A stretch of DNA of 63,253 nt, filler included, from Globobulimina sp. (taxonomy: Eukaryota), in assembly GCA_003354225.1 (NCBI GenBank). It is 38 parts of 38 records of this genome, joined end to end, with 100 filler letters (N's around TTAATTAATTAA, not from the genome) between each part and the next. Parts side by side here need not be neighbours in the genome. Positions count along the whole stretch, not along the records: positions 48,360 to 49,925 come from PIVH01014740.1; 37 more parts are not named here. One strand, written 5' to 3'. Each line of letters begins with the position of its first letter. The stretch's first letter is position 1. The notes below the pieces were generated by a model, which was given only the letters and a program-made list of their open reading frames with translations, did not search any database and was not told where the DNA came from. Made by a program: the position numbers and the translations under genes. Positions 1-58,255 of this stretch are shown in pieces.

Positions 1-1567
1 TTGGCTGCCAAACCACATAATCATACAAATTAAATTGTTTATTATTAATCTGATTATATGCTAATTGTTGATCTTTCTCGTGTTTTATTCTACGTCTTGT
101 GGCTTTATCGATAATTAATTTGTGGGTATTCTTCGCCCAACGCTTGAATCGTTTGTAATCGATGGAGCCATTTAATCTGAAATCGCTCGCATTCAATTTA
201 CTAAAATCCTTCAATCTCAGGTTCATCTCCAAACAATTTGTGTAGAAAGGAAAGAAAAACCGTAATTCATTCGGAGCGTAGCCAGTATGCGGACGTTTGA
301 TACTATTTTGACTAAATTGGATCGATGGCAAATAATCTTCGTACTTTGAATATTTCTTACTTCGTTCTAAAACTCTTAATTTATCATATAATGCACCAAT
401 GCCATAATGGTCATAATTATATTTATGAATACTGATAGATTTCGTTAATAATTTCATTTGAGTCTCGGCGGGATTCGTCCAAGGCGAATATTCCATCATT
501 TTCCCTACTTTAATACCAATGATATAGCAAAATACTCGGTTTATAATACCGGTGAAATATTTTCCATTGTCATTGCCTAACTTTCGGATAAATCCTAATT
601 CATAACACCATACAAATAACACTTTCTTGCATATTTCTAATGAGCGAGGTTTTACCTTTGATAATTTTAATAATCCATCCCATAAATCAAACATAACCAA
701 AATCATACCACCGTCATGCATCGGACCATACAAATCCATAAATACGAATTGATTCGGTCCCGTTACGTGATATGGGGACATCGGACCTTTGTCTTTGTTA
801 TATTTATCTTTGTGTTGCTTATCAACTAATTTGCAGAAACATCGCTTGACGTAAATGCATATATCTTCTTGAGAGTGCGGCCAATAATAATATTGTTTCA
901 TGTAATTGACTGTGGCTGTAACTCCGCGATGGTTTACTCCTTCAACGTGGCAATATTGCATCAATGGCACACGCAAATTGGGAGGGACTACGACTCGTTT
1001 TTCATGCAGTAATATTCCATCATCTCTCAAACTTAATTTTCCGGCATGATACGCATCAATATATAGCTTATCATAATATGTCGCCGGCTTCAGTGTATAC
1101 GACCTATCATTCAACTTTCTGATCACATTAATATAGACTCGATACTGCTCAGCCTTTAATATTTCGTATGGCGATCGTTTGGAGGCAGTAAATATGTTAT
1201 TTCTTAATGGTTTCAGGAGGTAATTCTTATTATTTTCCTTGACCATACGCTGAACGTCTTCATTGTTTAATAATTCATCCTTATTATCATAATTATCTAC
1301 ATCCATCGGGATATAGCCTTTATCTATGCGAGCATCCAACTTTTGTTCCTTCTCAATTCGCGAATTCTTAGCCTTGACATTTTCTGCAGTCTCAGCTGCT
1401 TTCTTCATCGCACGAGTCATTATTGGACATATCTCATTTACTGGCATAACTGGGAGGCGCTTGTCCAACATATTCCTGTTTTTATTGATAAATGGAACGG
1501 GGAGCAATGGAGCCTCTGCGTGCTTGGCGGCGAATTTTACGGTGTTCTGATGTACCGAACGGATGAC
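1..1567 (-). mobile_element. Ty3/Gypsy-like LTR retrotransposon pol fragment (linker + integrase), open at both ends
   Basis: Hand translation of the minus strand is stop-free (absent from the ORF track because it has no stop): MTRAMKK linker, RVVVPPNLR..CHVEGVNHRG..YYWP..RCFC zinc finger, FMDLYGP, GNDNGKYF, YSPWTNPAE, HTGYAPNEL. Confidence 0.88.
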
Positions 1568-48359: not shown

Positions 48360-49600
48360 ATTTCGATAAATATGACCGATTGCGGTTAGTAACAAATAAA
48401 AAACGTATTTGTAAAAACTATTTGCGAACCTGGTTCATTATTGATGCAGTAACCTGTATCCCATTTGAATTAATACCAAACGAACAGAATTATCATTATA
48501 TCAAAGCACTTCGCGTATTTAGATTCTTTCGTATTATTAAAATATTACGTTTTCTAAAGTTGCTGCGAACATTTGATGCGATGGTCAAACAATTTGTGAT
48601 CAGGGAAGTTCTGGTATTTATGAGATTATTTAAAATTATCTGCCAAATGTTATTGTTTGCTCATTTTGCAGGTATATGCATTTGATATGTTATGTTTTAT
48701 TATTATTTGTACGCATATATATGCAGCATGTTTGTGGTGGTTTGTTGGTTCTCAAACCTCTCCGTCGTGGGTGGATGAGAAGGGATTACGAGGCAACGAT
48801 GTTGATAATTTTAGCAAGTATTCATATTCATTTTACTGGGCTGTGGTCACTCTCTTTACCACAGGTTATGGCGACGTGGTCGCGACCAATATCACGGAGC
48901 AATGGATCTGCTCCGTCTGCATCCTTATCGGCACCTGTTTTTTTGCGTATTTTATAGGCACTTTGACTGTACTCATCACTGAAGGAGATAAGATAAAATC
49001 GTATCAATCTGATAAATTGGAAGAAGCACAATCTTTTTGTGAGAAAAAAAAATTACCCAAAGAATTATCACGGGCTATTCTGACACATATACGATATCAT
49101 TGTAGTTAAGTATTTTGTTAACACTTTGTAACTTAAACATTTTGTTAGCACTAGTTATGAAATAAGCAGCTTATAATTATGTGTTTGATGAAAATGAATT
49201 GCTAAGCATACTGCCGTCATATTTACAGCACGATATTCATGCTCATGTTGCAAAACAGTTTTTATTGCAATTGGAAATATTCCAAAATGAGTACATTTGT
49301 TTACCAGAATTTATCATTGGTTTAATTGCACTAAAAACGAAATCCATTTCTTGCAATCAATGGTTTAAATTATATGATTGTGGAGATATCGCAAAAGAAT
49401 TTTATATCCAAAGAACTGGCACTTCCACACTCTATAAAAAAGACCAAGTTGTTGATCACCTGTCTCGTGGCAGTGTTTGTGGCGAATATTCCGCAGTTTT
49501 GTTCAAAAAAAGACAATTAAAAGTTGAGTGTTCAACGTGGAGCGAATTTTATTCAATTTCTGTAGATGATATTGCCCAAATTTTAGCTTTATATCCTTAA
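48360..49600 (+). CDS. Cyclic-nucleotide-regulated K+ channel (EAG/HCN-like); introns 48672-48726 and 49105-49169; 3' truncated
   Basis: YLRTWFIID, S4 Arg/Lys repeats, TTGYGD filter, C-linker LP..L, CNBD GD..FYI..G..GE. Confidence 0.92.
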
Positions 49601-49632
49601 TCATAATTACTGTGACCGATTATTTTTTTTGC

Positions 49633-49760
49633 AACTAACGCAGAGTTGATCGATGGGAGACATGAAGCGGGTTATCTAGCCCATAAACCAATTCGCACTC
49701 CTTAAACTGTGACCCTCCGAAAAAGCGGCCTGCTGTCTCACATTCGATCCAATGACTTGT
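49633..49760 (-). mobile_element. Integron attC site, interrupted in R''
   Basis: Minus strand ACAAGTCA-TTGGATCGA-ATGTGAGACA...TGTCTCCCA-TCGATCAA-CTCTGC-GTTAGTT: paired L boxes with one extra G, R' starting GTT. Confidence 0.88.
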
Positions 49761-49925
49761 GTACGCCCGGCATGGGCGTGAACTAAAGGGGTTAAAGTCC
49801 CCTGTACGTGAACCCTGTTAATAAGAATGTTTGATATTAGCAGAAGTACTAGCCTAAGGCAAGGGCAAAATCGTGAGAGATTGTCTGAAGGAAGCATACG
49901 GCAAAACTGTGAGCCGACGAACAGA
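49761..49925 (+). ncRNA. Group IIC intron, 5' end (domain I)
   Basis: GTACGCCCGGCATGGGCG..AGGGGTTAAAGTCCCCT..TAGCCTAAGGCAAGGG..CGTGAG..TCTGAAGGAAGC..CGGCAAA matches class C intron starts; preceded by TTGT. Confidence 0.88.
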
Positions 49926-50304
49926 NNNNNNNNNNNNNNNNNNNNNNNNNNNNNNNNNNNNNNNNNNNNTTAATTAATTAANNNNNNNNNNNNNNNNNNN
50001 NNNNNNNNNNNNNNNNNNNNNNNNNACTTCATCTTTTACATTCTAAAGAAAAAGTGAACAGCGAACCTGTAGCTTCACATTGACCGGAAGGGTCGGCTCT
50101 TTTTTTTTATTTTTTTATTTTAGATACTTTGGGATCTCTTGCAAAGCAAGGCGAACAAAAGTTGTGAAGCGTGCACAGGGAACGCTGTAGGCCGCAGGGG
50201 AACTCAAGGACGTAATTCACACTGGGGTTGGTACACGCGAAAAAGCCATATTTGACGAAATTTTCAGCCGTTGCCTTGCTTTGTTGCCATCAAATGGAAA
50301 CAAA

Positions 50305-50423
50305 TGATAACAACAGGGCCCAGTGGACATTCTGTTAAATAGCCGTTGGAGACAAATCAACATTCATTAGTTGTTGTAAAGTTATCATGTCTGCAAACAT
50401 GCCACTGACCCAAAGCGCTATTA
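50305..50423 (+). mobile_element. Degenerate attC site (R' = GCTATTA)
   Basis: TGATAAC..CCCAGTGG-ACAT....ATG-CCACTGAC..GCTATTA, then an RBS and a gene. Confidence 0.62.
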
Positions 50424-50445
50424 AATAATAAAAAAGGAGATTACA

Positions 50446-50739
50446 ATGACAAAACCACTGACAATAATTGCCCGTATTGAGGCAAAGAAAAATAACGTTG
50501 ATTTAGTGAAATCTGAGTTACTAAAGCTAATTGAACCAACACGCAAGGAGCAAGGATGTTTACAATATGATTTACATCAAGACAATGAAAACCCTGCAAT
50601 TTTTATGTTTTATGAAAACTGGGAAAATCGAGAATTATGGCAAATCCATATGAATAATGAACACCTTAAAGCATATATGGACGCTACAGATGGTGCTGTC
50701 GAGAATTTCACCCTAAATGAAATGTCCCAAATAGATTAA
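50446..50739 (+). CDS. Antibiotic-biosynthesis/quinol monooxygenase (ABM) cassette gene
   Basis: AAGGAG RBS; PTRKEQGCLQYDLHQD..FMFYENW..H....H. Confidence 0.93.
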   Translation: MTKPLTIIARIEAKKNNVDLVKSELLKLIEPTRKEQGCLQYDLHQDNENPAIFMFYENWENRELWQIHMNNEHLKAYMDATDGAVENFTLNEMSQID

Positions 50740-50806
50740 GCCTAACCATGTACTGGAGAGGAATATCCTCGCTACACTCGAATATCCCTCAGTACGGACG
50801 TTAGGT
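50740..50806 (+). mobile_element. attC site (67 bp)
   Basis: R'' GCCTAAC directly after the stop; GTACTG(G)A pairs with TCAGTAC; R' GTTAGGT. Confidence 0.92.
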
Positions 50807-50875
50807 GTATCAATCAAATTCGACTTATCGACAAAGACTATCAGAATTGTGTATAGAGTAATTTAGGGGTGAAGT

Positions 50876-51313
50876 ATGTGGGAATTTAAACACGAAGAAA
50901 CAATCAATGCATCTGCGGAAGTGGTATTTGGCTTAATTAGTAATTTACCCAATTACCGGAATTGGAATCCCTTTCTAATTATCGCGATTGGTCAAGTTGA
51001 AATCGGAGGTGTCGTTTCTGGTAAATCGGTTTTAGGAAAATTTACAACTTCCTATCGACATAAGATTTTTGAGTATATTCCCAATAAAAGTCTATGTTGG
51101 CGTGACTTCGGCTTTCCTTCTTTGTTCGTTTGCGGCCAGCGTTCTCGTTACATTGAAACTCGAGATGGGAAAACACATTTCAAATGCCATTTAAAACTTT
51201 CAGGTCCATTTTCAGGTCTTATTAACTTAATATTCGGTGAAGGTCTTCGTAATGGTATTATGGCAGAAGCTAAAGCACTAAAAAAAGAGGCTGTGAAAAT
51301 TTCACAAAAATAA
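50876..51313 (+). CDS. SRPBCC-family cassette gene
   Basis: ETINASAEVVF..L.NY..WNPF; C-terminal ALKKEA helix. Confidence 0.88.
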   Translation: MWEFKHEETINASAEVVFGLISNLPNYRNWNPFLIIAIGQVEIGGVVSGKSVLGKFTTSYRHKIFEYIPNKSLCWRDFGFPSLFVCGQRSRYIETRDGKTHFKCHLKLSGPFSGLINLIFGEGLRNGIMAEAKALKKEAVKISQK

Positions 51314-51328
51314 ATCAATGTAAAATAC

Positions 51329-51392
51329 ACCTAACCACATGCTGCATTATGACAGCAGGGGTCCAGTCGGCCCCACAGCTCAACCGTTAACG
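51329..51392 (+). mobile_element. attC site (64 bp)
   Basis: R'' ACCTAAC; ATACACCTAAC (51325-51335) is the exact reverse complement of the cassette start GTTAGGTGTAT (50800-50810); R' GTTAACG; inner pairing imperfect. Confidence 0.78.
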
Positions 51393-51434
51393 CATTTAAT
51401 AAACTATATTGTAAGCGTCGAGAAAAAAATACCC

Positions 51435-51591
51435 ATGAAATTCATCCGACAATTTCTGTTCATATTCATTACTGTTACACTAATAGCCTCTTGCAGCAAT
51501 AGTGATCAAATCACTACACCTATTTCACCACCTGCAACAACAGGTTACAAAAGCCTCTTCATCGGCCACAGCTTTTTTAGACCTTTTGCCG
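51435..51591 (+). CDS. Lipoprotein cassette gene, possibly SGNH-like (3' partial)
   Basis: MKFIRQ-hydrophobic-IASC lipobox; LFIGHSF resembles SGNH block I. Confidence 0.65.
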
Positions 51592-56766: not shown

Positions 56767-58255
56767 TTAATCCAATATAATTGGAGATAGATTCAATAGG
56801 TCCACTTGGTATAGGTAGCTAAATCTTTTTGTTTCTTTTACGAATTGAAGAAGGTTTTTCCATATTCTAACTTGAGTCATCACATCTAGTTCTTTCTCAA
56901 TGTCTGGTGGTCTTCGGATTGTATATGGATAGAATAACTCGTTTAATCCAAATCTATTTCCATCACGAAATCCAGACCAAATATCATGAAAGGAGTCAAT
57001 CAATCTCTTTCGTTGATGTTTATATGCCGGGCATTTAATAAAGTAATGGTATATCGATTCAGTTTTATTCAAATTACATTGTTGGCATTCTGGGGATATT
57101 ATATTATTTTTATCGGTATCTTTATATTTGTGTTTAAATAGGAAGCCATTTAGTTCAATGTGGCCAGATATTATTCGATTTAGCATTGCTGCTTCATCTT
57201 TATTTAAGTATTTGATTATTTTATTCAGTTTATTATTGAGGGATGGGTTTGTTTTAAACATTTTATAGCTATCTTGGTGAGGTTTTGTGTTTCTATGTTT
57301 CCATTCTTCACTCCAATGAAAATAAATTTGTTTATGTAGTTGTGTTATTGTGGTATTGTATGATATTTGGCTGTATAATGTTTGGTCATATTTTGCATGT
57401 TTTGCTGTAAAATTTGCCAAACGATCGGCCTCATCATTAAAGATATTATTATTATGCGATTTTATTTTTATGAATGATATAAAAAGGGTTGGATTAATCA
57501 GCATTATTTGTGATAGTTTTACGTAGATATTTTCAATTAATATTTTTGTATCATGGTATTTCGGGAAATTCTGTCCATTTATAAATTGAAGCAGAGGTAA
57601 ATTATCAATATAGATTTTATAATGGATATGGGGATTATTTTTATTATTAATTATATGATTTAATACAATATGAACTGCTTCAATTTCAGCAGTTGTTATT
57701 GTTACTGGGATTTTAAAGTAATGGACTTTTTTAAATGGCGAACGATGGGAAGGTTGGGATGGAATGTATGCCGCTGCTCCTCCTTTGCCTGGATTTGGGT
57801 CACATGATCCATCTGTAAATGCAATGGTGATTTTGTTGTTGGAGGGTAAGGTTGGATTTGCCGGAGATAGTATTACATCAAAATTCGTTGGCAGAGACAT
57901 TAAATTATATGCAGGAGATGAGGTAACTTGGATTTTATTCATTGTATTAAAGTCCTGTGACAAAGCTTTAATTACAGTATTATTTTTGCAGTATTTGGCC
58001 GCTATTATTAGTGAGTTTTTATTTAGATTGACAAATGTATTTGGATTTTTTTTATTTGATTTTCTATATTTATGGGATTGTATGGTTTGTCTATAATGGT
58101 TTAATGCATTATAGGTTTTATTTAATGGATGATAAGAATTATTATAATAGACCCTGGCCATTTGTCGCATTGTTAAATAATGCGCTCTATGTTGGATTGG
58201 CTCTATTTTTAGGAGGAATTGGATAATATCCATTGGTGCATCTAACCGACATGGA
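56767..58255 (-). mobile_element. Non-LTR retrotransposon ORF2 3' end: RNase H plus CCHC knuckle
   Basis: AFTDGS, AEIEAV, IYIDN, IKSH..NDEADRLA; CQQC..ESIYHYFIKC. Confidence 0.9.

Follow-up and report, generated by a model that had tools for sequence, protein, structure and literature searches.

A group IIC-attC intron start in an integron attC site, joined to an ion-channel gene fragment on a contig of a Globobulimina assembly

We analysed a window of 63,253 nucleotides from a Globobulimina sp. assembly (GCA_003354225.1; 70.2 Mb in 48,370 contigs). The window is made of 38 unrelated contigs of 1566-1569 bases each, sorted by size and joined through N/linker/N spacers. Many of these pieces carry eukaryotic Pfam families (RasGEF, tubulin, CDC20, RCC1) and some are bacterial; two stretches with Integrase_H2C2 and RNase H domains (window 2-1567 and 56770-58254) are likely to be host retrotransposon pieces. 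Contig C14740 (PIVH01014740.1; 1566 bp, window 48360-49925) begins with part of a eukaryotic ion-channel gene, which has 33 matches within this assembly, and ends, in its last 293 bases, with an attC site and the start of a group II intron. Its features are the following:

48360-49594, + strand: fragment of a eukaryotic ion-channel gene of the cyclic-nucleotide-gated/K+ type (Pfam Ion_trans, Ion_trans_2, cNMP_binding)
about 48672-48726 and 49105-49169, + strand: two GT-AG introns of the ion-channel gene, skipped by the X1 and X3 contigs
49594/49595, no strand: probable chimeric junction of host gene and bacterial DNA, where X1 and X3 diverge; it makes a premature stop at 49598-49600
49595-49632, - strand: 38 bases between junction and attC, candidate leader and first codons of the next cassette (ATG at 49604-49602)
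49633-49760, top strand -, recombining bottom strand +: attC site, 128 of about 133 bases, from anatomy and homologues
49633-49639, + strand (bottom strand of attC): R', AACTAAC, from attC anatomy
49645-49651, + strand: L', GTTGATC, after a 5-base spacer from R'
49743 and 49750, + strand: extrahelical T and C, six bases apart (T-N6-C), the attC bulges
49746-49753, + strand: L'', GATCCAAT, followed by a 5-base spacer and the GT of R''
49757-49760, + strand: IBS1, TTGT, the 5' exon of the intron, including the first two bases of R'' (read directly in the sequence)
49761-49925, + strand: group IIC-attC intron, first 165 nt of domain I, from identity to copies and RF02001
49834-49862 (intron positions 74-102), - strand: predicted P1out-like promoter, TTGCCT-17-TAATAT, directed towards the next cassette through attC

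The attC hairpin of about 130 bp, cut within R'', that had been proposed for this stretch is borne out by its anatomy. R', L' and L'' stand at canonical spacing, the L box pairs in 7/7 positions (when the upstream 185 bases were shuffled, 12 of 5000 versions did as well), and the two extrahelical bases form a T-N6-C configuration, which is described as being excised by IntIs (PMC3053210). On the top strand, the core of R' reads GTTAGTT (49639-49633), with an exact GTT triplet and a 6/7 match to the consensus GTTRRRY. Only GT of R'' (49759-49760; AC on the top strand) is left before the intron, inside which the contig ends. Since the whole 136-nt stretch folds no better than its shuffles (z of -0.42 on the + strand and +0.50 on the - strand), it is the anatomy and the homologues, and not folding energy, that carry the attC call. 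Contig C14740 is too short, and probably chimeric besides, to display a cassette array or an intI around the site.

Two intron-free sister sites were found, one in a Thermodesulfovibrionia MAG (L126, 2405-2540; 91%, 106/117) and one on another contig of this assembly, C24324 (L002, 340-490; 75%), where it lies between two co-oriented ORFs. Both read TTGAT where R'' should give TTGTT, that is, ATC and not the R'' AAC on the top strand (GAT, compared to GT before the intron here). Because of this replacement, the two sites (n = 2) are without both the canonical R'' triplet and the intron target. Such GAT triplets, along with the insignificant folding energy, are what might be expected if C14740 carried an ordinary terminator-targeting class C intron inserted after a chance inverted repeat that is not an attC site at all. 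We consider this reading extremely unlikely in view of the canonical R'/L'/L'' spacing, the bulges and the full pairing of the L box. Moreover, a terminator-like site was looked for and none was found, the sister site on C24324 separates co-oriented ORFs, and the RT of a sister copy of the intron falls outside the Bacillota-dominated RT group described below.

Returning to the intron in its attC site, its sequence, GTACGCCCGGCATGGGCG, starts at 49761 directly after TTGT, aligns with class C 5' ends and is antisense to the cassettes, having been inserted at TTGT in R'' of the attC bottom strand. TTGT/T is also given as the target consensus of IIC-attC introns (PMC7923331). The original prediction of a class C intron in this position and orientation holds: two loci of a single Nitrospirae MAG, L139 (PIVU01000320.1) and L140 (PIVU01000264.1), are identical to the intron in 159/165 and 161/165 positions, respectively, and they contain the whole of domain I, matching RF02001 with 130.5 and 126.6 bits. 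The Infernal check by which the class was to be verified thus succeeded in the near-identical copies and stayed below threshold on the window itself, where nothing reaches the Rfam gathering score. On the truncated intron RF02001 obtains 31.7 bits (E 6e-4), just under its threshold of 32; this match crosses the N linker, so that only 49867-49925 counts. The 165-nt intron piece folds at z -1.95.

An environmental bacterium had been suggested as the source of the intron, and the near-identical copies in the Nitrospirae MAG and in metagenome contigs agree with this. A contig of metagenome X9 covers 49753-49915 with 2 differences and one of X10 covers 49760-49925 with 6, and neither runs into host DNA; a metagenome contig collection scanned for the intron and for attC gave 0 matches each. 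The donor of the bacterial DNA probably belonged to Nitrospirota or Desulfobacterota. We lean towards Nitrospirota, the phylum of the closest intron copies as well as of the closest attC, but this is a lean and not a result. The MAG with L139 and L140 encodes two integron integrases that exceed the TIGR02249 cut-off and showed no copy of this particular attC. The intron of C14740 is one more environmental IIC-attC intron, an ordinary one with nearly identical copies already present in public MAGs.

EBS1, the RT, domains V/VI and the 3' exon are absent from contig C14740, the end of which cuts the intron 38 nt before the EBS1 position, and were examined on relatives. In L139, an ACAA sequence occupies a hairpin loop at intron nt 203-206, and L140 has the same loop on a compensated stem. 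In both copies this candidate EBS1 would be complementary to TTGT, the target seen in C14740, where EBS1 itself is off the contig. A narrow pattern for this loop showed ACAA in the 6/20 attC-lineage rows that it parsed and left 14 unparsed, and ACAA also occurs in 2/9 other class C rows. Although L139 and L140 are nearly identical, their target sites differ: L139 lies behind TTGT in another attC-like site and carries an open 384-aa RT frame with YADD that is cut by the contig end, whereas L140 follows TGGT and jumps from the ORF start to domain V, having lost its RT. The 3' ends were caught in 14/17 complete relatives, and 15/15 are followed by T. The RT phylogeny can likewise be addressed only by proxy, as C14740 has no RT. 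A quick IQ-TREE analysis of 82 RTs, from which the duplicates L127 and L142 as well as identical proteins were excluded, puts the RT of L139 in a 23-row attC clade together with N. europaea and three clinical integron introns, whereas 57 rows, mostly Bacillota class C introns, form a separate group (SH-aLRT 95). Support for the attC clade is moderate (SH-aLRT 84, from a quick tree with no bootstrap or one-clade test).

Among known systems, N.e.I1, G.s.I1, the Geobacter sp. intron, S.ma.I2 and Sh.ba.I2 are described as class C introns that likewise lie after TTGT in the attC bottom strand, in antisense; Table 3 of PMC3001079 lists N. europaea among IIC-attC hosts. The RT of the N. europaea intron is 60% identical to that of L139 and is found in the same clade; this intron starts with GTGCG, whereas that of C14740, of which just 165 nt are present, starts with GTACG. 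G.s.I1 and S.ma.I2 are likened here by their published description and not by sequence, and locus L221 (1970 nt) resembles S.ma.I2, for which 1971 bp is given, in size alone. The plasmid integron introns share about 74% DNA identity with our sequence over the intron 5' end. One intron of this kind, L220, is located on an E. coli plasmid (NZ_KT982617.1) beside blaIMP-4 in a class 1 integron. It follows TTGT, starts with GTACG, has a T at the start of its 3' exon, matches RF02001, RF01998 and RF00029, and encodes an RT 60% identical to that of L139, but differs from the intron of C14740 in its attC and cassette. The blaIMP-4 arrangement is as described for Kl.pn.I3 (PMC5027574), with which L220 would, judging from that arrangement, be identical.

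The GTACG start had been singled out as a departure from GTGYG. It turns out not to be unusual, since we find it in at least 123 genome loci as well as in each of the three clinical introns examined. The loci were collected with a junction-spanning 22-mer from genome contigs, many of them of Desulfobacterota, and form a set selected by the motif itself. In addition, 344 plasmid records match the intron 5' end, 329 of them over at least 80% of its length. When attC-clade loci were taken by RT similarity, 10 had GTACG, N. europaea (two loci) had GTGCG and 2 were unparsed. Among the matches listed, 22/118 distinct flanks of motif loci have perfect 7/7 L boxes compared to 0.6 expected, and 35/118 score at least 6 compared to 6.0 expected in what is a crude fixed-spacing test; as the other 83/118 score lower, the test does not show all of them to be attC sites. 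Introns of the GTACG-starting branch occur widely across Desulfobacterota and Nitrospirota. When 43 aligned 5' ends (window 49761-49830 in our intron) were examined by mutual information, A3 of GTACG showed no compensating partner; the columns that emerged only follow lineage, and none is a complementary partner. There is an invariant AGC column, which we take to be epsilon-prime. With this column kept and A3 uncompensated, one pair would be non-canonical. Of the papers retrieved in a literature search on the GUACG start of group II introns, none, judged by titles and abstract starts, deals with this lineage. We do not claim it to be undescribed, and supplementary alignments of IIC-attC papers may already show it.

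The original prediction also placed the RT ORF beyond the contig end. We treat this as about an even bet, because full RTs were found behind 11/47 comparable 5' ends and none in this assembly. The survey covered, among the matches listed, 47 distinct 5' ends starting GTACG that are followed by 1.9 kb or more of sequence. Full RTs follow 11 of them, 13 are RT-less with a 3' end at 294-1190 nt (3' ends placed by BLAST and hence approximate), and for the remaining 23 no 3' end was found up to 3.1 kb. Short RT-less derivatives of IIC-attC introns are, in this sample, as common as full-length copies (13 vs 11 of 47). The short elements are L008, L014, L015, L018, L024, L049, L058, L060, L063, L071, L075, L079 and L080; L140 is also RT-less. 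The intron of C14740 may thus lack an RT too, being either an internally deleted derivative mobilised in trans or a dead 5' remnant. This would be a variant of the same element and not another kind of element, and we see its chances as evenly balanced. It would be in line with the makeup of the closest copy, L140, and with the 13 short elements and 23 open-ended 5' ends of the survey, whereas L139, almost as close, has its RT frame open. The intron DNA of L139 matches no contig of this assembly other than C14740, and no matching RT was found there; this absence counts for little because the assembly is so fragmented.

Other group II intron parts in the assembly were considered as well. The best RT match, at 37%, is on C8650 (L128), the only contig in the assembly with a PF08388 maturase match, and it belongs to another intron. 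Its RT identity is 34-37%, it sits on a long branch outside the class C rows, it matches RF02003 and not RF02001, and its 3' exon starts with G. The intron on C8650 is close to complete and belongs to another group II class; its RT ORF of 470 aa is open, and it matches RF02003 and RF00029. The other 67/68 RT matches are weak, with E of 2.6e-11 at best and no more than 36% identity. RF00029 has at least 3 matches in the assembly (57/2784 candidates scored). One of these, on contig C23366 (L255, 1010-1106, - strand), is the 97-nt tail of an attC-type intron, which ends in CCCAAT and is followed by TAGCC. This 3' end is 91% identical to L044/L055 and leads into the rest of an R'' site and two cassettes. 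It could belong to the intron of C14740, though nothing links the two. The 3' end on C4633 (L254, 3-77) was rejected as another type; there, the contig start holds domain V/VI from a third group II intron, followed by two bacterial ORFs.

As for the mechanism, published accounts of IIC-attC introns describe recognition of the folded attC bottom strand, with IBS1/EBS1 and IBS3/EBS3 contacts at TTGT/T, and endonuclease-independent reverse splicing that leads to insertion antisense to the cassettes (PMC7923331, PMC4424553). If the same applies here, intron RNA together with an RT/maturase lacking an endonuclease would have recognised the folded single-stranded bottom strand of attC, with EBS1 (ACAA) pairing to TTGT and EBS3 to the next T. 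The intron would have reverse-spliced into R'' and then been reverse-transcribed by an RT supplied either by this element or by a sibling in trans. As the insertion splits the R box, the site should no longer recombine. The candidate P1out might drive the downstream cassette. It has 8/12 consensus matches, below the scan threshold, and the promoter scan of the window gave 0 sites at threshold. For the intron of Geobacter sp., Table 3 of PMC3001079 gives a P1out (TTGCCT-17-TACGCT) at 74-102, which has the same position and the same -35 hexamer as our candidate. S.ma.I2 is described in that paper as blocking Pc transcription and supplying an outward promoter.

While the attC and intron reading in the original prediction stands, it overlooked the fusion, 38 bases from attC, to a truncated host gene. 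Contigs of runs X1 and X3, which come from two studies, lack both GT-AG introns and are therefore taken as transcripts. They match 49170-49594 with 1 and 0 differences, respectively, share beyond 49594 an identical run of 30 other letters that agrees with the continuation of paralogue L129, and give zero cover from 49632 onward. The ion-channel paralogues read on as LYYPKSAHSKW, whereas C14740 reads LYP followed by a stop. The GC content rises from 0.34 in the host part to 0.47-0.48 in attC and the intron. From the position of 49595-49632 directly after R' (top strand), we infer that these bases belong to the next gene cassette, as its leader and first codons; they have no match in host runs, in genomes G001 and G002 or elsewhere in this assembly. 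A host spliceosomal intron spanning 49595-49644, which does end in CTAAC..CAG, was rejected: 49595 has no GT donor, and the transcript continues with sequence absent from the contig.

Most likely, contig C14740 is a host-bacterium chimera that arose as an amplification, library or assembly artefact. Bacterial DNA would have been sequenced along with the eukaryote, 331 bases of it becoming joined to the channel gene at 49594/49595. Both sides of the joint have short sequences in common (TAT, CC, AATCA). According to PMC1855051, more than 70% of MDA chimera junctions have 2-21 nt complementarity; the common sequence here would fit template switching. We stop short of calling the artefact certain because the native continuation of the channel gene has 0 matches in this assembly. 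The alternative is that bacterial integron DNA truly inserted into, and truncated, one allele of the host nuclear channel gene. In its favour, the contig does join both sequences, the native continuation is missing from the assembly as searched, and the donor may live with the host, given the other integron parts in the assembly. Since IIC introns are described in PMC4424553 as bacterial only, such an insertion, if real and recent, would amount to a transfer observed as it happens, with the attC and class C intron start of an associated bacterium in a eukaryotic nuclear gene. Nonetheless, we find it very unlikely. The transcripts of two studies are intact past 49594, no contig among the runs compared bridges the joint, and the sequence does not return to that of the host. 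The intron shares 96-99% identity with bacterial and metagenome copies, the GC content departs from that of the host, and the short shared sequence at the joint would fit template switching. We consider it highly probable that C14740 carries the IIC-attC intron of an environmental bacterium, inserted in a cassette attC and chimerically joined to a host gene. As the assembly holds host-bacterium chimeric contigs, bacterial features adjoining eukaryotic genes in it are no evidence of transfer.

Besides the sister attC and the attC-type intron 3' end, this assembly contains an integron-integrase-like N-terminus on C25559 (L231, 695-1021), which is 37-41% identical to two IntIs of G001 and divergent from a cassette-like ORF; it remains below the cut-off because the sequence is cut off. 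The next piece of the window (50026-51591), adjacent to C14740 only by size sorting, is a bacterial contig of its own, which carries a cassette array:

50446-50738, strand not given: ABM monooxygenase (Pfam)
about 50741-50807, strand not given: attC-like hairpin (fold z -2.6)
50876-51313, strand not given: SRPBCC/polyketide-cyclase gene (Pfam)
about 51332-51391, strand not given: second, weaker attC candidate
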